A DNA stretch of 64,000 bases from Ginglymostoma cirratum (Eukaryota). The stretch's first letter is position 1; every line of letters begins with the position of its first letter. Under the pieces are notes generated by a model, which was not told where the DNA came from, searched no databases, and was given only the letters and a program-made list of their open reading frames with translations. Shown in pieces: positions 14,601 through 55,962 of the stretch. The stretch lies in assembly GCA_024137785.1 (NCBI GenBank), contig JAHRHZ010000002.1, positions 19,302,685 to 19,366,684 on the forward strand, written 5' to 3'. A program made the translations under genes and the position numbers.

Positions 14601-17600
14601 GGAAATTGGTCTATGTGGTATACTATTTGGCAGGCCGGTGCAGACTCGATAGGTCAAAGGGGCTCTATCTGTACTGTAGAAATTCAATGAATCTAGCCTG
14701 TCATTGTTTATTATCATGCAAGGCGGTAGGAGTACAAGTGTGAGATAACCTCTAATGCAAAATACTTAAAACTAGAAGGCAATAATGAAACTCACCGACT
14801 TTGAAGTTGAGCATTTAAATACACTTTCAATATTCTACAATTTGAGCAATGACGCTTTTAATTTACGAATACTTTACGAATACTTTACGAACATGGCGCG
14901 AAAGTGAGGAATGAATGGATGGTGTAGTAATAATTTTTTGCATTTTTGTCTTTCTGATACAAGGATAAGTATGATAATTTCCTAATTTCTTGACATTTAC
15001 TATTCCTTTATAGGGCTCTCCCCCTCGCTTTCCTTTCAAAAGTCTACTCTCGTCAACAAATAAATTGGCTAATTACGCCAACAGTTCAGAGAAAATTTGC
15101 AAGTATGGTACCAAAAATATGCAGGTATACACATCAACACAAGCTGGATATCTTCTCTCTTGAGAAAAGAAGGTTGAAGCATAACCTAATTGGATTCTAT
15201 AAAATTATGAAAGCTTTGTTACAATAGATACAAGGGAGATTTTCCTCTAATGGGCAAAAGCTTAGATAGAAGCCACCAATACAAGCTCACTATCAAGCAT
15301 TTCAATGGGAAATCAAGAAGAAACTTCTTCCCATAAACTATGACAAGAACGTGAAACTCATTACTACAGTATGAAGAGAATAACAGAGTCGTAATTAAAA
15401 GTTAACTGGAAATTCACATAAGGACATACAAAAAGTTTACTAGATTTATTAGTTGAGACGATAATAGGGAGAGGTCCAAGAAGAGCGTAAACACTGTGTA
15501 GTAACTCATTCTATGTTATTTTGTACTTGAGTTCAGTAATTACCTGGAGGCCTGCTACGGTGCAGTGTGGAAATTATTTTGACTAAGATTATAACGACCA
15601 GCACCACCACCACCACTGAAAATATCAGGAGATTGGTGTTCCACTGAATTGGAGATGGTGTTTCTTCAGAATCAATATGAGCTGCGAATAGAGGGGAGAA
15701 AAACTATTTGTTTCGTTATGTCTTTGCATTTCTCTTCGCGCTTTTGGTAATGGCTATATTGGTTTCATGCTTAACTTAAAAGCTGCAAATGAGTAGCAAT
15801 GTTGCAGTATGGTGCAGCAGGGCACCTAGTTGGTGAGCAGTAAAGCAAAAAAAAAACTATGTATCTTTTTATAACCCTCCTCTGTGCTTTTCATTGCTGT
15901 TATTCTTAGTCGTATGTTTGAATTAAGGTAAACAAGAGCGTTACAAAGATCATTTGTACAAAATAAGCACAAATAAGATCAGCAGACAAAGCCACAATAA
16001 AGAGTCAGTTGAATGACTGCAAGCCTGTAGATTCCAGCAGAGGTGGTTTAGTGGACGTTGGGGTAGAAGGTGGAGGAGGGGCAGGTGTAGATTGTAGCTA
16101 TTGGGGGAGGTGAAATGTTGTACACTGTTCTGTGTATCTCTTCCTTTTTCTTACTTGTGACCTATTTCAGAACAAAATGTTCATCATATAAATTGCTTAC
16201 TTTCCATTAATTTGAACTTCTTAGGAAAGCTATATGGATTCAAAATGGACTCAAAAATGCTGCTAATCTGAATCTAATATACAATAATTCATCGTAAATT
16301 AAATATCAGTAACTATGTATCACCCATACTCCACTCGATTAAATGATCAATTAGACTCAGACAATTTTGCAACTAATTTACCCATTCCAGTTTAGGTAAT
16401 CTTTATGCTACTTTGTGAAGATGATAGAGATAGCTGACTGTATTGAAGCTATCTTAAGTTGCAAAACATGTAGAACAAACGAGCCAGTTATTATTCAATT
16501 GTGATTATAACAACCAGCACCAGGGCCACCACTGAAAATACAAGCAGATTTGGAGTTGGCATTTCTCCAGAATCAATATGAGCTGCAAATACGGGGGAGA
16601 AAAACCATCCATTTCATTATGTCTTTCCTTTTCTCTTTGTGTTTTTGGTAGTGGCTATATTGGGTTCACACTTAATTTAAAAGCTGCAAATGAGTAACGA
16701 AGTTGCAGTACAACACCACAGAGCACCTGGATGGTGAATGGATGAAATGAAAAAATCTAATTATTTTTTCATCATCCTCTTCTGTGATTCTCATTGCTGC
16801 TATCTCCATTTATCTCCAGCGCTATGTGTTTCAGTCTAATTTGTAATAACATGCTTCAATTATTTATTGATTGATTCTCAGTAATGAGTTTGAATCTAAT
16901 CAAACTAATTCCTTCAAGTTATGAGTCGCACATCTACCGTGAACAATTCCATTACTCGTGAGATTCATGCACTCATCGCATTAGTTTGATTGCACATTGA
17001 TCACAAAGAAACAACCCTCTAGAGAGCGTCGATGGATCAGTTCAAAGATTTGATGTTTTGCAAAACTCAATCTAAGTTTTCGTGACATAAAAAAATACTC
17101 ATAGAAAAAGATAGTTCCATAAATTTCGCACACTCTGTGGTCGAAGAACGCAGCACATCAGTGCAAAGGACAAAGCTGTTGCATTGTCAATCATCTGCAG
17201 CCAGGTGACATTCAATTTTCCTTCTTGACTGTTTCCAGAACACTGTATCATTGCGGATTCAAGTGCTAAACCAATTCAATTCACCGCACGTCATGCAATC
17301 AGGAACTAAATGCACTGAATACGGCCACAAAAGACCCAAATCTGTTAACCAGTTCTGTCTTTAGCTATTTAGTTCAGCTACATCATTGATATATAATTAA
17401 TAAACTTAACATGACTCTTTCATGAGAAAAGCAAAACTCAATCCAGCCAATTACTGGACACCAGACTTGTCCCAAATATCAAATAAGTAATGGGGGTTTC
17501 CTCACCAGTGGTATACAATGACAAGTGATCCATAATACCCAACGACATTTTTGCTTTCTGTCAGGGCTAAACTTTTATTGACCTGTTAACACTTTGCTCT

Positions 17601-44995: not shown

Positions 44996-45053
44996 ATGCA
45001 AACCGTTCAAATGCGGATGTTCCTGAATTTAATGACAGCTCTTTTGCACACCG
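44996..45053 (+). CDS. Gene B exon 1, leader MQTVQMRMFLNLMTALLHT(D)
   Basis: gagATG, strong donor G|gtgagt, phase 1, in frame with V exon; exact start Met uncertain (several in-frame ATGs). Confidence 0.65.
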
Positions 45054-48000
45054 GTGAGTTTCTGTCCTATTACCCCTGATATACATATAGTGTTTTAACA
45101 CGGAACAAACTAAAAGCCGAAAGAACTGCGGATGCTGTAATTCAGAAACAAAGCCAGAAATTGCTGGAAAAGCTCGGCAGGTCTGACAGCATCTGTGCAG
45201 AGAAATCAGAGTTAACGTTTAGGGTGAGCAACCCTTCCTCAGAGCTCGACCCCGAAACGTTAACTCTCATTTCTCTCTCCAGATGCTACCAGACCTGCTG
45301 AGCATTTCCAGCAATTTATGCTTTTTGTTTCTGAAGGGACAAACAGCGCCTTTCAAGGAGAATTCCTTCTTATTAGGCATCGAGGATTATTTTCTTCCAC
45401 TCCGATGCTGTGAACTCTAAAGTGACTAAACTGTCCAATACTGCAACCCCATACCCTGCCACTGGTGGGGGAATTGGTATTTGCTGAACGAAGTTAACAG
45501 GCAATCGAGTAGCAATAAATGTGTGTGAGAAAGGGTTGTGGTTAATCCTGTGGAGAAACACAAGGTAATACATTTTGATAAGAAGAGCGTGGAGAGGCAA
45601 CATTAAATGAAGCTACAAGAGGGATTTGGATTTACATGTGCATGAATCATTAAAGGTGGCAAGAGAGTTTGAAAGTGATTAGTATAGGACACAGAATCAG
45701 AGGCCCTATAAATAGTTACATAGAGTACTACTGCAGTGAAAAATGTAGAAGGTGTATAAGACACTGGCTCAGCGTCAGCTGGATTATTTTAAATTAGGAA
45801 GGATGTGAAAGCCTCGGAGAGAGTGCAGGGTGGTTGACAGAATGGGGGAGACAACGCCCAAAAAGTGGTATTACCACTGGACTGTTAATTCAGAGACCGA
45901 GGTAACGTTCTGGGGATACAGGTTCGAATGGTGGAATTTGAATTCAACAAAAAAAACCTGGAATCAAGAATCTAATGATGACCGTGAATCCAATGTCGAT
46001 TGTGGGGAAAACCCCATCTGGTTCACTAATGCCCTTTAGGGTAAGAAACTGCCATCCTTACCTGGTCTGGCCTACATGTGACTCCAGACCCACAGCAATG
46101 TGGTTGACTCTGAACTGCCCTCTTCGCAATTAGGGATGGGCGATAAATGCTGTCTAGGCAGCGACGCACTCATCCCATGAATGAATAAAAAAATGTTCCG
46201 GGAATGAGGCATTCCTGTAACGAAGGTAGATTGGAGAAGCCTGTACTGCTCTCCTTGGACAAGGAAAAGCAGAGAGAAAAATTGATTGAAGTACTTAAAA
46301 TCATGAGACGTTGGACAGAGTGAATAGGGAGAAAATGTTCACTATTTTCGCATGGAAAGATGGAAAACAAGAAAGCAAGATTTAAAGTAAGTTGTAAAAG
46401 AAGCCAAAGTGTTATAAAGAACGTAATTTTCACGCAGCGAGTAGTTAAAGCCTAGAATGAAATATCTGAGAGTGTGATGAGACTTGAACAAACTGGGATT
46501 ATTTTAATCAGCTTGTTTAAAGATGTCATTACACACCTCTGGAGCAGGTGGGACGTGAACCTGGGTCTCCCCGTTCGGTGGCAGGGACACTACCACTAGA
46601 GTCCCACCTGACTGAGTTACATAAGATTACGAAGGTGCTGGCATGGTGGATGAGCAGGTCAATGGTGAATAACAAGGCAAAATAATTTTAAGGTGAAGGG
46701 TGTGAAGTTTAGAGGGGATTTGAGGAAAAACGTTTTAACCCAGAGAATGGAGGAAATCTGGTATGCATTGCTCGGAAGGCTAGCTGTGGCAGGAAGCTAC
46801 ACAATCTTTAAAAACTATTTGCTTGAGCAATATAAATATCATAATATTCAAGGCTACGGACCGAATGCTGGATTATGGGATTAGGGGAGACTTAGAGTTT
46901 TTTTTTATCGTGTGCAGACTCGATGGCGTGATTCTATGATTCCAGAGGAATTTACAGTGAAATTAAACTGCTGTCTGAAAGGAAACAACGGGCAGGCTTA
47001 TGGGGAGAAGGCAGAAAGTATAGCACCAAGTGAGCTGCTAATATGGAGAGCTGGTGCAAACATAATTACGAAGGAAGCCATTCAGCCCTACATCGCATCT
47101 GCACTATCTGTCCTACGAGCCTCGTGACTTAGTACCTCTCCCTCCTAATCATGTACATTGTTTCTATTCAAATAAACATCTGATATCCTATCAAATGCCT
47201 TAATTGAACCTACCATCATCACACTGTCAGGCAGTGGATTCGAGACTTTTTCTGTGAAAAACATCTTTTTACCGTCACATTTGCCGCATTTGCAAATCAC
47301 TTCAAATCTGTGCCCTCGCATTCTTAATTATTTTTATAAGTGGAAACAGTTTCTCCCTATACTCCATTCAGACATTTCAAGTGAAAGTTTCTGCCAGGTG
47401 TCTTCTCAGCTTCCCTATCCCATCCGCATAACTGGAACAATTTTTATAATTCTCATCCGTTCTATAGTGTGGTACCCAGAACTGTACACAATACCTCAAC
47501 TGAGGCTTAAAGTGTATAAGTTGTATAAATCCATGATGGGCCGAATGGTACTCTATGCATCGTAACTATTCTGCAATTCTATGACTATGATGAATCCGAT
47601 TACTTTTATGGATAGCTTTAACATAAAGTCAGACAGCGTGGAATGAGGCCATTTAGCCCATGGTTCCTTCTCTGGCTCTTTGAAAATGTTATCCTCCAGT
47701 TCGTTTCCCATGTTCATTTAATTGTTTTCCTTTACAAGTTTAGCCAATTATTTTGTGTAAATTCTTATTGTTAATCAGTTTACAATATGCTTTTAGCTGG
47801 TAAATTCCAGGTTTTACAAATTATATCTATTAAACGTTCTCATCTTAGAAAATTCTGTGGAAAACCATTAAAAATTAATATCAGCAGTTCTGGAAATAAC
47901 CGACACCTTGGACTCCTATAAGTTTTTTTTAATATAAATACAAAAATACTCTGTGGAAATCTGAAATTAAAAATAACGCAAATAGCTGGAAATATTCAGC

Positions 48001-51000
48001 AGCTGTTATGACATGAGTGGAGAGATAATCAGACCTCATTATGAAACCTTGTTAGGGAGATCATATCCTTATTTTTGTAGTTGGTTAACACTGTGGTTTC
48101 TCACTGAAACTTATTGACATGCATCTGCATGTACTATTTAAAACAGAACAACTTCTTTTACACAAATTGAACAATAAATATAACTAGCTAGGGAGATCTT
48201 AATGCAAATATCAAAACAAGAATTCAACCTGTTTTCCAACACCATTGTTGCAAAGATTCAATCCCAGAGAACTGTCATTCCTGCCTCAGATTTTCAATCC
48301 TTACTTGATTCACAGCAAATGGGGAAATGTAAATTGCTCTCTTTGGCAGGAAGAATAAAAAGGTAGTGTACTATTAAAATAGAAAGAGGTTGCAAAACTC
48401 AGGTTTTCGAGATGATCTTGTCACCCTATGCATGAATTACCAAAAGTTAGTTTGCATACAGCAAGTGATTAGCAAGACAATTGAAATGTTTTTATCAGAA
48501 AGGGAATGAAATATAGGTGTTGTGGAATTTTATGGCAGTTGCAGAGTGTATTGATGAGGCCACATCTGGAGTATTGTTTACATTTTCCATCTTGGCCTGT
48601 GGGCATCAGTGGCAATCTTAGCATTTGCTACCAAACCCAGATTATCTTTGACCTCAGTGGCTTGCTAGGCTATTTCAAAGGCCCTCAAGAGTCAACAAAA
48701 TTGCTTTGGGTCTGGAGTCATGCATGGGCCAGACTTCCTTCCCTAAACCATATTAGTAAGCCAGGATGGGTTTTTACAAACATTGAAGATATTTCCACAG
48801 TCACCATTATTGAAACAAATTACTAATTCCTGGTTTGCTTTTATTAGTAATGTGTTGAACCCATATTCCTAGAGCATTAGCCTGCATCTCTGGGTTGCTA
48901 ATCCAGTTACTTTTGCTTTTATTTAACCTATTATCCTATTCAACCTGTTCAGAGATGTTCCAGGATAAGGATGTTACTACTGCACCACAAGCAGGCCCAA
49001 GCCTGTGAACTTTACATTTAAGTGTAAAGCCTCTCAAACTGCAAATTAACTGATACTTTACACTCAAATATATAGGGCCCCATTTATTCATTACTGGCAC
49101 GTGAGCACCTTTGGCAGAACTGACATGCTTTTCTGGATCTGAATAACACCAGAGAAATTGATGGTGGGCATCATTTTTAATAAGCTACACTCTATCTGGT
49201 GTATGTACCCATAGTGCTGTTTGGGAACAGAGTTCCAGGATTTTGACCCAATCACAGTAGGGAACAGTGATATAGTACCAAGTCAGAATGAAGTGTCTCT
49301 TGGAGGGGAACTCGTGGTGTTCCTAATTCTCTGCAGCCCTTGTCCTCCTATCCGATAGAGATCACAGGTTCAGAAGCTGCTGTTAAAGGAGACTTAATAG
49401 AGTACAGCAGTGTATCTTGTAGATGGTATATTTTACTGCCACTTTGCAATATTGCAGAAAGCCTGAATATTGAAGCTTGGATGGGGTGCCCAAACAATCT
49501 GTCTGCTTTGTCTGGGATGATGTCTATTTCCTGAAATATTGAAACTGCAACTGTTTGAAAAAGTGAGGAACCTTGAATCAGGGTCCTCACTTGCATCCCA
49601 CATATGATGGGAAGCCTTTGGGGAATCCAGAAGTGAAGTTGCTGATTCAAACAGATATGAATGTCGGGAATTCTCCACCTCAGGGAGTCAGTTATTGAAT
49701 ATGAAAGAGGTTGACTGTATTTTGGATACTTTAGGATTGAATATCTTGGGGGATTATTCTGGAGGTATTTGTGAGGTAGGAAATCAGACATTAGTCTAGT
49801 GAATGGTGGAGCAGGCTCCAAGGGCCGGCTCCAGCTACCGATCATGTGTTCTTCTGATGAAATTGTTCCATTGTACTCCAGACAGCGTGCTGATGAGGGA
49901 AGTCAAAGCGTTCCAGTCTCCAGATGTTGTGCGTGCGACAGAAGGAGAATCTGTGCAGCTGAACTGTACCTTTGAAGCACTAGGGCGGGTTGGAAAAATT
50001 GTTTGGAGGCGTGCCTTTGAAAACGCAGAAGTTTCGGACAGGAACCCTTTCTATGAGAGGCGGCTGGAGACATTGGGGTCTGAGTTATTTGCCCAGGGCA
50101 AGACTTCCATTAAAATCAACAGAGTATCGAAAATGGACTCAGATTATTATTACTGCCAGGTGGAATTCATGACAACTGGGAAAAGCAATGGGACCACTAC
50201 ACAACTTGTTGTAACTGATCGTAAGTGAACAGACAAGAGTTGATTTTAAGAGATTTTTTTTCCAGTATCATGACATTTTCATAGCTTATGTTCATGTTAT
50301 ATTCCCAGATAGCATGTGGGCACTGTCAGTTATAGCCTTGCATCTGGATCAGTTTTGGCAAATTGCTTGCAGGAAAAAAGGAAATGCAATAGGAAACATC
50401 TCTTCCTGGTGTGTTGCCCTAACTGACACCAAGGGTAACCATCCCTCACTGCGCTCATTGACCTAGGCTGACTCCTCATCCTTATAACTTGTGACTTTTC
50501 TCTATGGACCAGCCCGTCCCTATCGTTATCCTCTTTGTCATCCTCACTGCCCCTGGGGATTCTCCGTTCCTTCAATTCTGGACTGTTGTGCGATGCCCCA
50601 TTTAAAGAACAAAAAGCAAAGAGCTTTACAGCACAAGAACAGGCCTTTCAATCCACCAAGCTTTGAAATGACACATGATGCCCTTCTAATCTAAAAATAT
50701 TTTGCCTCTATGTAATCGTATCCTTTTATTCCCTGCCTATTCAAGTATCTGTCAAGATGCTCTTGAATGTTGTGATTATCTGTTTCTACCACCTCTTCTG
50801 GCAGTATCCAGGCACTTACTACCCTCTGTAAAACAAAGCACTTACATTTCCGTTAAATTCTCCTCCTTTTACCATAAACCTATGTCCCCCAGTAATTGAC
50901 ATTTCTACCATCTGTCATCTCAACATAGGAGGTACTGTCTTCAACTCCCAAAGCTCTGAGAGCTACTCTCTCAAAAATTTTCCCCCTATCTAGCCCCCAC

Positions 51001-54000
51001 CCCACTCCTTTAATGCCCAGCTCCTGGAGATCTTTTTCCATGTAGGTCTTACAGGAAGTGCTTTATGAGATAGTTGATGCATTGGTTTCAATTTTCCAGA
51101 ATTTCCAAGATTCCAGGTAAGTTCAACTGAATTGGAACAGGAAAAATATAACCCCTTTACTCAAAGAGAGAGAGACTGAGAGAGAGAGAGAGAGAGATAC
51201 AGAAAACATGAAACTATAGGCCAGTTAGTTAACATCTGTCAAAGGAAAGATGGTAAAAGTTATCACTACATATGTTCTGGCAGGACATTTTGAAAAAAAA
51301 TTAAAGTAATAGGGCAGAATTAACATGATTTTGTGAAAGGGAAATCATTTCTCACTGACTTATTGGAGTTACTTGTGCTATCAGTAAAGGGGTACTGGTG
51401 GATTTTCTATGCTTATATTTCCAGGAGGCATTTCAGAAGGTGACACATTGAAGATTATTGTAGAAATGAAAAGCTTGTGGTTTGTAGGTAGCATATTGAC
51501 ATGGATAGGAGATTGGCTAGCTAACAGAAAAGAATAGGCATAAGTGTCATTTTTCAAGGGGCAACAAGTGGTGTGCCTCAGGGATTGGTGCTGCATTCTC
51601 ACATTTTTATAATTTACCTAAGTAACTTGGACGAAGGGACTAATTGTATCTTAATTAAATTGGCTAAAAACACAAAAATAGGTCGGAAAGTAAGTCATGA
51701 AGAGGACATTAGAAGGCTACAAAGTGATTTTAGAGAGAGGTTGTGGTGGTGGGGTGGTGGGGAGCTAGCAGGAGTTGGTGGAGTTTGAAATTTTACCATA
51801 ACCCACCAGTCAGAGATGCAAGTTTTCACTCCATCGAGTTACTGTGTTTGAGATGATGGCATTGAGTGAATGTTACTGGAAATTTTAGTTGCATTTAGTT
51901 TATTTCTTCAGAAACTGGTTGTGGAGAATTCATAGACCCTGCAATGTTTATTGGTGTGCTGTTGTGAGTTACCTCAAGAATGGCTAATGTGATTTTGTAG
52001 GAATACTACATGCACACATCATTCTCCCCGTTACATTTTTCAGAAATGCTTCAGATTGCTATGTAAATTAATAATTGTGAATTAAATGGATCTTTGTTGT
52101 CTTACACCAGAGCATGGAACTGATTGTCCTCAACCAATCATCAGTCAATCATTTTCACTGATGCTGGGGCTCCTGGGGTTATTCACGCTTGCGATTATTG
52201 TCCTATTCTTTCGACTGTACAGTCAACATAAAGGTATGGTGTAAAAGCAAAAACAGTTATGACTTTTCTGTTATCTTTGAGAATGTATTGTAGATTTGTG
52301 GCAAGCTTGGTGCTGATTGTAGGGATTGCATGTGTTATTGCAATTATTATAGCATAAAAGCTGTAATTAGCAAAGAAGTATAAGAGAATGTCTTAAATTT
52401 CACTAATTTTATAAACTTTCCTTTCAATTTAGTTTTATCGAGTCTTAAAGGGTATGTATGGAATGTTTCACTTTTCACTATATAAGTGTCGGCTTTTACA
52501 ACATAGGAACATACAATCCATAATGTCTTTAACTTGATCTTATCTTCCAGGTCACACACAGTCACACAAGTGAAAGGAAATGACTGTACAGATGGTAATG
52601 TTTTATGGCCATTTCTTATAGTCAGACAATTGTATAGTTAAATATTGAACCATGTTTTTTGCTGCTATGATGTACTTCATAAGGGTGTTTAAATACCTAA
52701 TCTATAAATAGTTGTTTGAAAGTATGAGACATCAGCATGAAATTAATTGTCAATAACAAATAATTTATAATCTCACCTCAAAGAACAGCCTTCATTATTC
52801 TTGATCTGCGCAAAGCTAGGACAATAAAATGAACTGCAGTAACACCCTAACCCCTGTCTCAGAATGTTCAGGATGCATGTCCCACTCAAGAAAGTGAAGG
52901 AAAAAAGTCAAGGCTGGCACTTCCTTCAGTGCTGAACTGTTTAAGATACTGACATCCAGACAAGATCTGAAACTAATGCCTAGTTGGCCTGTTCAGTTGG
53001 CATGGTGCTACAATTAGGGAGTTCTTGCTGATATACTCTCCAGGTCTCTAGTTCAGTGATGGCTCACTTGCAGGCATTTCCAAGGTTACCTCATCCTCTG
53101 TAACTGAACTGCAGCATACAGACAATGCTTGTGTCTGCATTTACTCCAGGCCAAAGTCAACATAGGAACGTGCACAACAGCAAGGCCCTTACACTAAACT
53201 TTCATAAGATAAAGTTCATCTACTAACCTGTCCCCTGGTTATCAAAATCCATGACAAGGCCTTCGACAACATAGAGTATCTTCCATACCTTGTGAGCTTA
53301 CTATCAACTAGGTCAGACATTAAAGAGGACAGAGCATCTGGGTAGGATCCACATGTCAGGAGTGTCATCGCTGTTGGTAAGCAGATGTCAAACCTCAGCA
53401 GAAAGAGGTGCAGCTGGCAAACCAGATATCCCACCCTCCGATTTCCAAAACTAGCTACTGTCCCATATGTGATAGAGACTGGTTCATGTTTTCATTACCA
53501 AGAGGTAATTTTTAGCATTACCTAAATGCTAAAAATTTAGGTAATTTTTAACAGGTTTGCTCAACCAGAAGGTACCGCTTAAGAAGAAGAAGAAAAAGAA
53601 TAAGACTAGCCACTTCAGATCCATCGATCACAGTGCTGTTTTTGAGAACTGGCTGTGCACCAATTAGCCACTGTGTTCCATACGCTATGACAGTGACTAC
53701 ACTTCAAAGCACATTGTGATGTTCTGGAATTGTGTTTTCGCACCAAGGTGGTGGAAATCTAGAATCTCATTCCTGCAAAAATCCAGAGAGGGCAATTGAA
53801 AATTCAGAATTGAGATGTACCAGGGTAAAGGGGCTGAATGGTCTCCTTCCTGTTCCAAAACATTGGTGACTTGGAAAAACTATGGGGTTAGTGATTCTCA
53901 ATGGGCACTTGGACACTGCAAAAGGAACGCTGCGTGGAGTCTCAGTTTAAATTCTAAGTAAGAAGAATGCTCACTTGCATGAAGTATGACTGACTGGTGA

Positions 54001-55962
54001 GCAGTCCAAGCACTGTGCCCAGCCAATGTCAGTGCAGTCATGACAGGAATGAAGGAGGGTTTGGGGGGAGGACGTAGAAAGTGCGCTCAGTTGTTGGACG
54101 GCAAAAATAACTCATCTGCATTATGTAACTGTGCATCACTGTTTGTTTCTATTCCAGAGGCAATTGAAGTTCAGGTAAGATTATTTTGAAATTGTTATTT
54201 CAAATAACAATATAGACCTGTATACTAAAACCAGATAATTGGTAGAATTGTCGCCTCTGAGTAGGAAGGCCCTTGACCCAATATTTTTAGCCATCAAACG
54301 GGTGCATTTTACATTAATAAATAATGAGCTTTGCTGGCAAGGCTAGAATTTATTGCCTGTCTCTAAGTGTCTTTGAGAAGGTGGAGCAAAGCATCCTCGA
54401 TTTACTACAATCCATAGAGTGCAAGTATGTCCAAAGGATTGATGATATGGCAGCACTGGAATTTTGACCCAATGAAAGCAAAAGAGTGGTGATATAACTG
54501 CACTAATAGGACGGAGAGTAACTTGGAGGGGAACTTGCGAGTGGTGGTGTTCCCTTGTGTCTGCTGTCCTTTTATTTTTAATGTGCCAGAGATTTGAAAG
54601 ATACTGTTCAAGGGAACTTGATGAGTTGCTGCAGTGCATCTTATAGCTGGTAGACACTGCTGCCACTGTGTCTGTGGTGGAAGGAATGAATGCTTAAGGT
54701 GGTGGATAGTGTGCCAATTGAGCAAGTTGTTTTGTCCTTAATGGTCAAAGTTTTTTTTATTGTTGTTGGAGATTCCCTCAGCCAAGTGGAGAGCATTCCA
54801 TCACACTCCTGACCTATGTCTTGTAGATGGTGGACAGACTTTGGGAAGTCAGGAAGTCAGGAATCACCACAGAATACCCTGCTCTTGCAACCACAATGTT
54901 TATGTAGCTGGCACAGTTTAATTCCTTGCCAATGGCAACTCCTATGGATGTTGATGGCAGAGGATAAAGGACAGTAACAGCACTGAATATGAAGGGGAGA
55001 AGGTTTTATCACCTTTTGTTAGCAATGGTCGTTATGCAATAATTGAGTGGTGCAAACACTGCTTGAGTCTGAATGTTGTCCAGATCTTGTTGAATGTGGA
55101 AGTGGAATGCTTCGATATCTGAGGAGTTTCAAATGGTACTGACCACGATGTAATCAACAGTGAACGTGCCCATTTCTGTCCACTCGTATGAGAATTCGTC
55201 TGTAATGCAGTAGCTTGGGTCCAGGACATTATTTTCAGGAACACATGCAGCAATTCCCTAGGGGTGAGAAGCTAGCTGCAAACAACCATGAACTATGATT
55301 CCAACCAGTGACGAATTTCCCTCCTCAATAGCATGGGTTTCAGTTTTACTGGGGCTCTTTGAGGTTTCTATGAGTGTTTCTAAAGATTGACTGTGCCTGG
55401 AGGCTCATCAACTCAGTCAAAGATGCTCTTTGATCTGTCTGAAACCTGTTGGTCTTCCAGAGCAAGCAGTTGACCTTGACCGAGTGTTGCAGACTGGCCG
55501 ATTCCAAGGTCCAGGGCTACATGCTAAGGGATGCACTAAGGCTTAGGGCAGCTTTGGTCAAAGCACAGTGGGGAAAGACCACCATCGAAGATGTTTCTGC
55601 TGAAGTTAAATAGGGGTACATTCAGTTATCGGATTCCCCAGTGCCTCAGATATATGTAAATGGTATCTTGCATAAGTAAGAAATACCCTAGGTTTTGTTT
55701 GTCCTCCCTACAAAGACTGTACAGAACCAAACTGCTTTAGTGACTATGTATATGTAGAATTTTTAGGAGTAAAGTATATTTTTGAAATTAAAAACAATAT
55801 TATTTTTAGGAAACATCATCTGGTCCCAGGCAAGAGACAGTTCTGCCATTCAAAAGCCAAATCTCCTTACCTGTGTACAGCACGGTAAAAGTACTGAGCA
55901 CTGCTAGAGAAATCACCTCTTCAAACCAACATCTCACCTATGCCCAAGTCACATTTCATTAA
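44996..55962 (+). CDS. NCR3-like: Gene B: NKp30/NCR3- and CD28-like single-IgV inhibitory-type receptor, 229 aa; join(44996-45053, 49882-50220, 52111-52233, 54158-54174, 55810-55962)
   Basis: Five exons, canonical GT-AG, phases 1,1,1,0, 690-nt open frame; V domain strongly NKp30-like (QSPDVVRATEGESVQLNC; EVSDRNPFYERRLETLGSELF); tail has PVYSTV and LTYAQV. Confidence 0.85.
45110..45335. mobile_element. Fold-back Penelope-terminus element (family 2) in gene B intron 1
   Basis: Inverted arms aattgctggaaaagctcggcaggtctg.../...cagacctgctgagcatttccagcaatt, starting about 55 nt after the exon 1 donor. Confidence 0.75.
49882..50220 (+). CDS. Gene B exon 2, IgV (VJ-type) domain
   Basis: Acceptor ttgtactccag, donor C|gtaagt; LNC, IVWRR, DSDYYYC, GKSNGTTTQLVV; 339 nt. 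Confidence 0.95.
51165..51198 (+). repeat. (GA)n microsatellite within a CR1 fragment (~51060-51730)
   Basis: Read directly; flanked by NYRPVS-like and GVPQGLVL CR1 motifs. Confidence 0.85.
52111..52233 (+). CDS. Gene B exon 3, stalk + TM (QHGTDCPQPIISQSFSLMLGLLGLFTLAIIVLFFRLYSQHK)
   Basis: Acceptor ttgtcttacaccag, donor AAG|gtatgg, 123 nt, phase 1-1, uncharged TM, stalk Cys. Confidence 0.88.
54158..54174 (+). CDS. Gene B exon 4, 17-nt micro-exon (EAIEVQ)
   Basis: Strong acceptor gtttgtttctattccag and donor CAG|gtaaga; makes the required phase 1 to 0 change. Confidence 0.75.
55385..55795 (+). mobile_element. L1/Tx1-clade LINE 3' end
   Basis: Decayed frame CAWRLINSVKDAL-SV-NLLVFQ...ECCRLA...WGKTT resembling the Tx1/L1 ORF2 C-terminus; ends in taaagtatatttttgaaattaaaaa. 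Confidence 0.6.
55810..55962 (+). CDS. Gene B exon 5, cytoplasmic tail (ETSSGPRQETVLPFKSQISLPVYSTVKVLSTAREITSSNQHLTYAQVTFH-stop)
   Basis: Acceptor tatttttag, phase 0, canonical ITIM LTYAQV next to the C-terminus. Confidence 0.82.
   Translation, partial: ETSSGPRQETVLPFKSQISLPVYSTVKVLSTAREITSSNQHLTYAQVTFH

Follow-up and report, generated by a model that had tools for sequence, protein, structure and literature searches.

The closest described systems to gene B, a nurse shark (Ginglymostoma cirratum) receptor gene in the 64,000-nucleotide window analysed here (assembly GCA_024137785.1, contig JAHRHZ010000002.1, forward-strand positions 19,302,685 to 19,366,684), are human NKp30 (NCR3; PDB entries 3noi, 3pv6 and 6yjp) and the CD28/CTLA4/ICOS receptors. 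Human NKp30 is reported to be monomeric and to be without the stalk cysteine of CTLA4; it is regarded as a relative of the CD28 family, and a general NKp30-CD28 kinship is already in print (PMC3135353). Signalling by human NKp30 proceeds through a transmembrane arginine (PMC6514059). The CD28 family has been defined by a PPP loop motif (PMC11599192), and the CD28 interchain disulfide is reported to be conserved only in mammals and marsupials, with YxxxxT as the conserved dimer motif (PMC7378745). A preliminary description of the window had placed gene B as an intermediate between the NKp30 and CD28 families.

Gene B is an already known, deposited member of the nurse shark NCR3 family. Brute-force testing of GT/AG boundaries gave a single exon chain that translates exactly into a database protein: seven exons with GT/AG ends, at 44996-55962 on the forward strand of the window, encode letter for letter QTT61903.1 (P0001 in Table 1; UniRef A0A8A9WR28), a 250-residue 'natural cytotoxicity triggering receptor 3' of Ginglymostoma cirratum, with no sequence difference. 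The same name is attached to three further nurse shark matches (QTT61898.1, QTT61901.1 and QTT61904.1), and the horn shark and sawfish orthologues of gene B are named NCR3-like. The nurse shark NCR3 family is reportedly the subject of Kinlein et al. 2021 (Immunogenetics 73:333), going by the title as it stands in reference lists. The accessions MT914154-914161 presumably represent their set. Eight nurse shark NCR3 accessions with these numbers are given in PMC12227049. A literature search on shark NCR3/NKp30 inhibition, transmembrane segment and cysteine found no paper on gene B.

Two contigs of run X1 (RNA by the tool's guess) bear on splicing: one leaves out 50221-52110, whose ends are GT..AG, and also contains the joints of gene B further downstream, and the other joins the leader to the V exon. 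A sequencing-run search listed no RNA data set with the gene; reads of run X10 fell mostly on repeats, with zero depth at exons 2-3, and none from run X11 aligned, results of both runs that have no bearing on expression. The peptide across the V/stalk joint, YYCQVEFMTTGKSNGTTTQLVVTD/QHGTDCPQP, is encoded at 50148-50220 and 52111-52136 with a phase-1 GT..AG intron between, and the spliced peptide of the preliminary description matches the deposited protein exactly. Gene B encodes a membrane protein of type I whose single VJ domain is followed by a short stalk with a free cysteine and which has two cytoplasmic tyrosine motifs; strands A to G of the V domain all lie on one unrearranged exon of 339 nucleotides. 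Gene B is probably best explained as a spliced and deposited NKp30/NCR3 paralogue that is likely to act as an inhibitory surface receptor.

Family placement and ligand groove

Membership of gene B in the NKp30/NCR3 family can be regarded as almost certain. The V exon matches the Pfam V-set family (E = 6e-10), and among PDB sequences four NKp30 chains come on top (E = 4e-8), followed by SIRP and T-cell receptor (TCR) alpha chains; CD28 and CTLA4 are absent from the 28 PDB sequence matches of the V exon at E <= 0.01. A nine-row profile finds NKp30 in the PDB with E = 2e-16, and over both kinds of search NKp30 outscores SIRP by about 12-15 bits. An AlphaFold model of the V domain from a 72-row alignment (predicted local distance difference test, pLDDT, 91.6) superseded an unusable single-sequence model (pLDDT 56.8). 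With the 72-row model, Foldseek ranks 1-4 are all NKp30 (template-modelling scores 0.77-0.81) and NKp30 leads the VIA structure comparison (Z 15.9, root-mean-square deviation 3.4, 111 aligned); the rows listed by the two programs include neither CD28 nor CTLA4, an absence that does not exclude them. The NKp30-like V domain noted in the preliminary description is borne out.

Profiles of equal size (three sequences each) were compared for two paralogous NCR3-like V exon sets, with the gene B orthologues left out, and for the shark CD28 cluster. Gene B scores 73 and 61 bits with the NCR3-like profiles versus 14 bits with the CD28 cluster, which goes against the intermediate status proposed earlier. 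Orthologues were taken from nine records (nurse, zebra, two bamboo, horn, cat, basking and smooth-hound sharks and sawfish), eight of them aligned and the ninth read separately. The FG hairpin is short, with a Cys-to-Thr distance of 15 in every orthologue row as in human NKp30, in agreement with the NKp30-length loop described earlier.

Thirteen of the 14 related V exons of the genome lie on the contig of the window, as do 25 of the 28 major histocompatibility complex (MHC) class I matches (at 0.67-9.97 Mb, with gene B at 19.35 Mb); gene B and human NKp30 are alike in being MHC-linked and in having a single VJ domain. The NCR3-like V exons of this contig form two clusters, at 10.0-11.0 and 19.17-19.35 Mb. 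The first of these directly adjoins the class I matches at 9.7-9.97 Mb. Three CD28/CTLA4-type V exons (L015-L017), which match CTLA4/CD28 first among PDB sequences, are found within 82 kb on a different contig (C145:669568-751682), so that gene B lies outside this three-gene cluster. In all three the loop carries PPP, the V domain has one further Cys pair and the predicted transmembrane exon contains YxxxxT, features of the kind described for cartilaginous fish CD28/CTLA4 genes (PMC11599192); a stalk Cys is also predicted for each. L017 has a Cys-Pro in the register of CTLA4 at the end of its V exon.

In the V-domain tree, seven orthologue rows form one group (94/95), and in the best trees the gene B orthologues are not grouped with CD28/CTLA4. 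Several observations pull the other way. In the VIA comparison, antibody and TCR V domains tie with NKp30, coming within 1 Z unit of it; the deep branches of the tree are left open, gene B is about 9.4 Mb away from the closest MHC class I match, and an approximately unbiased (AU) test leaves sisterhood to the CD28 cluster unrejected (log-likelihood 10.1 lower, p = 0.311). The AU-test tree comprises 33 chosen rows and 111 columns, with unsettled bootstrap and long branches; an earlier V-domain tree was built without L016 and with one gappy row. Since the tree does not decide the family question, the decision falls to motifs, scores and synteny.

PMC3135353 (Table II) names 11 residues of NKp30 that contact B7-H6, and these were compared in the PDB-search alignment. 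Five are identical in gene B (Gly51, Leu80, Ser82, Phe85 and Glu111) and three are conservative, at an overall identity of about 31%. Against this, the other three are changed, including Ser52 to Lys and Leu86 to Ala. In human NKp30, Ser52Arg lowers B7-H6 binding 150-fold and Phe85Ala/Leu86Ala 53-fold (PMC3135353). The groove looks kept while its specificity may differ: because the changes at Ser52 and Leu86 affect positions that are costly in the human receptor, the ligand may not present the classical B7-H6 epitope. The Ser52 position, in the C strand of the V exon at about 50000 in the window, is Lys or Arg in seven of eight orthologue records, and this basic residue hints at a different ligand. 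A B7-family ligand for gene B is somewhat favoured. A Pfam PF22705 search for a shark B7-H6 returned 22 C-domain matches.

CD28-like letters and the stalk cysteine

The letters read in the preliminary description as CD28 hallmarks, KSNGT in the G strand and E-x-M after the second intradomain cysteine, are real but less diagnostic than claimed. KSNGT occurs in one of the nine orthologue records and is already changed in the zebra shark and both bamboo sharks; for this motif, the lack of conservation in orthologues that the preliminary description gave as grounds for refutation is thus observed. The sequon at this shifted place is fairly stable (six of nine records), and Gly123, Thr126, Leu128 and Val130 are invariant in the eight-record alignment. 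The G-x-G(-T) motif is intact in five of the nine records, none of them from carpet sharks; in the four carpet-shark records, nurse shark included, the second Gly is replaced by Thr or Ala. Since the five other records read G-x-G-T and Gly123 is invariant, the Gly of the nurse shark N-G-T corresponds to the first Gly of the motif, the second having been lost in carpet sharks; hhalign likewise aligns Gly123 to the first Gly of a shark CD28-type exon. In NKp30 and CTLA4, N-G-T falls on the second Gly, and the match is therefore two residues out of register, the sequon of gene B standing two residues earlier than Asn121 of human NKp30.

A published table (PMC11599192, supplement 2) has KSNG or RSNG in human, mouse and goose CD28 alone; its 11 chondrichthyan CD28/CTLA4 rows lack both, as do amphibian and fish CD28. 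The human CD28 row ends at KSNG, and its continuation is given only in the preliminary description. On that continuation, N-G-T of human CD28 presumably also falls on the second Gly.

The C-x-V-E portion of the second proposed hallmark is present in all nine orthologue records and in human NKp30. Its Glu is NKp30 Glu111, which forms a salt bridge to Lys130 of B7-H6 (PMC3135353), and its Met, found in two of nine records, aligns with NKp30 Leu113. Background frequencies were taken from 139 non-orthologous proteins, of which 108 V domains were parsed and 31 dropped, and 70 have a transmembrane segment. C-x-[VIL]-[ED] occurs in 45 of the 108 V domains and Met five residues after Cys in 12; a G-strand N-G is present in 41, at the second Gly in 33 and at the first in 8. 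Less easily set aside are the absence of KSNG from all 108 (the best partial match being four of five letters, once), the absence of C-P-x-P from the 70 background proteins with a transmembrane segment and the unchanged KSNGT codons in a close relative (run X8, about 96% DNA identity). The likeness of KSNGT to CD28 is nevertheless likely a coincidence, and may have come about by lineage-specific drift of the G-x-G-x-G-T strand. Where five letters match a human sequence quoted in this way, both the register and the orthologues have to be checked.

Gene B resembles CD28/CTLA4/ICOS in its single V domain, its stalk Cys, its single transmembrane segment and its tyrosine motifs, and belongs to the same broad VJ-domain superfamily. 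Gene B differs in keeping the canonical Trp61 and in having no second intradomain Cys pair (only Cys48 and Cys111 are present), a pair found in L015-L017 and CTLA4. The PPP motif of the FG (complementarity-determining region 3, CDR3) loop is present in L015-L017 and in none of the nine orthologue records, in keeping with the earlier remark that gene B lacks MYPPPY. Transmembrane YxxxxT is present in all three predicted exons of the shark CD28 cluster and absent from gene B, whose segment does not allow a YxxxxT-like reading because it has no Tyr. The E-I-P CDR3 motif of CD28H/CD28HL is also missing from gene B.

Stalk counts leave out three orthologue records, two that end at the V exon and a sawfish model with a divergent end without a transmembrane segment. 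Among the six with a stalk exon, D-C-P is kept in five, over four shark orders, and is absent from Chiloscyllium plagiosum; C-P-x-P is kept in three. The stalk Cys, whose loss in orthologues would have told against the preliminary description, is in this sense well conserved. Of the 70 background relatives, 19 have a stalk Cys too. Human NKp30 has no stalk Cys, in contrast to gene B, where 12 residues separate it from the G-strand Thr before it; the corresponding distance is 10 for CTLA4 and for shark L017. Because Cys138 is the sole unpaired extracellular Cys and is conserved over four shark orders, a disulfide-linked homo- or heterodimer is plausible, with the chances about evenly balanced. 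An origin of this Cys shared with CD28/CTLA4 appears unlikely from the sequences, although the predicted stalk Cys of all three shark CD28-cluster genes, one of them in the CTLA4 register, means that an old shared origin is not simply dismissed.

Signalling and alternative readings

The transmembrane segment of gene B contains no charged residue and no Tyr, and its tail carries Tyr223 (PVYSTV) and a canonical inhibitory motif of the immunoreceptor tyrosine-based type (ITIM) at Tyr244 (LTYAQV), 21 residues apart; YxxM and YxN, motifs of the CD28/CTLA4/ICOS comparison, do not occur in the protein. Human NKp30 differs in having the transmembrane Arg, and gene B in having a long ITIM-bearing tail. 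Without the Arg, gene B is not an activating receptor of the human NKp30 type as judged from its sequence, while still being a family member. Among full-length orthologue tails, three of five have a canonical ITIM and all five have Tyr-x-x-hydrophobic at the first site. Inhibitory signalling by the product is accordingly considered probable. The V domain would bind a self ligand, probably a B7-family protein, through an NKp30-type groove, and Cys138 may join two chains by a disulfide. As there is no transmembrane Arg, pairing with CD3zeta or FcRgamma of the human NKp30 type would not be expected. Tyr223 and Tyr244 would be phosphorylated by Src-family kinases and would then recruit SHP-1/SHP-2 and damp activation, balancing the activating NCR3 paralogues.

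Tyr-x-x-hydrophobic is also an AP-2 sorting signal, and gene B might instead be a mainly activating or dual NCR3 paralogue or a signalling-silent decoy, its tyrosine motifs serving endocytosis or adaptor binding. This would fit the bamboo shark and catshark tails (two of the five), in which a canonical ITIM is missing, and the horn shark orthologue, whose transmembrane segment bears an Arg at its outer end; both observations count against the inhibitory reading, and lineages may differ in whether the receptor inhibits or activates. The uncharged nurse shark segment, the missing YxxM and YxN and a tyrosine spacing that would suit tandem SH2 phosphatases make such a role an outside chance for gene B itself. 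The horn shark orthologue (P0147/P0004) combines its transmembrane Arg with a canonical ITIM and is possibly dual-signalling.

A molecule standing between NKp30 and CD28 in evolution, with KSNGT and the stalk disulfide retained, would account for letters identical in human and goose CD28 and missing from the background V domains, for codons unchanged in the run X8 relative, for the predicted stalk Cys throughout the shark CD28 cluster and for the AU result, and NKp30 is in any case seen as a CD28-family relative (PMC3135353). It is very improbable given the orthologue counts for KSNGT and E-x-M, the register shift, the absence of KSNG from the chondrichthyan, amphibian and fish rows, the missing PPP loop, second Cys pair and YxxxxT, the reported restriction of the CD28 disulfide to mammals and marsupials (PMC7378745), the bit scores and a complete CD28 trio elsewhere in the genome (on C145). 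Equally improbable is another V-domain inhibitory family (SIRP-, PD-1- or CD28H-like) that is NCR3 only by similarity name. SIRP chains are the next-best PDB matches after NKp30, and hhalign aligns gene B to the CD28H-like exon of the genome with a probability of 97%, but NKp30 scores ahead of SIRP, the NKp30-type groove looks kept, the E-I-P loop is absent and the neighbours of gene B on the MHC contig include NCR3 paralogues.

Within the preferred reading of gene B as an inhibitory NKp30/NCR3 paralogue, a covalently dimeric form that arose by convergence is possible, though somewhat doubtful. If the receptor is both inhibitory and dimeric, the MHC chromosome of sharks would encode NKp30 receptors of opposite sign, activating and inhibitory, working as pairs, and this checkpoint-like use has no counterpart in the human gene; such a result would be of interest to comparative immunologists without changing a paradigm. 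That the NCR3 subfamily represents disulfide-linked, ITIM-bearing NKp30 with a stalk Cys inherited from a common NKp30-CD28/CTLA4 ancestor is improbable; dimeric checkpoint-like signalling would then be old and monomeric, activating human NKp30 derived, and Lys or Arg in place of Ser52 would be the sign of a ligand that is not classical B7-H6.

Gene B features and neighbouring exons

Table 1. Exons and sequence features of gene B in the window
Feature	Position	Strand	Basis
Exon 1, signal peptide, 58 nucleotides	44996..45053	+	P0001 chain match; leader-to-V joint in X1 contig
Exon 2, single unsplit VJ-type immunoglobulin (Ig) V domain (Cys48, Trp61, Cys111; sequons Asn47, Asn122)	49882..50220	+	Pfam V-set, PDB, AlphaFold/Foldseek
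KSNGT, sequon Asn122 then Gly123, first Gly of the G-x-G-T strand motif	50181..50195	+	Alignment of orthologues
Exon 3, stalk and transmembrane segment without charged residue or YxxxxT	52111..52233	+	X1 contig, P0001 chain
Cys138, sole unpaired extracellular Cys, candidate interchain disulfide	52125..52127	+	Cys at 48, 111, 138, 192
Exon 4, cytoplasmic micro-exon, 19 nucleotides	52433..52451	+	X1 contig and P0001 chain
Exon 5, cytoplasmic, 44 nucleotides	52551..52594	+	X1 contig and P0001 chain
Exon 6, cytoplasmic micro-exon, 17 nucleotides	54158..54174	+	X1 contig and P0001 chain
Exon 7, tail with ITIM-like Tyr223, canonical ITIM Tyr244 and stop codon	55810..55962	+	P0001 chain

A divergently oriented gene of the window, gene A, has an NCR3-like VJ exon at 25192-24842 (-) with intact G-x-G (Pfam V-set, E = 4e-10) and an uncharged candidate transmembrane exon at about 15677-15550 (-). 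The region around 16500-16800 is a decayed copy of this candidate exon and its flanks (about 15590-15900), with 76% identity over 318 nucleotides; it contains an in-frame stop and is a trace of internal duplication. Elsewhere in the genome, a CD28H-like V exon with an E-I-P-P-P loop (L013) is located at C61:1860641-1860967, about 42 kb away from a C-type Ig match (PF22705).

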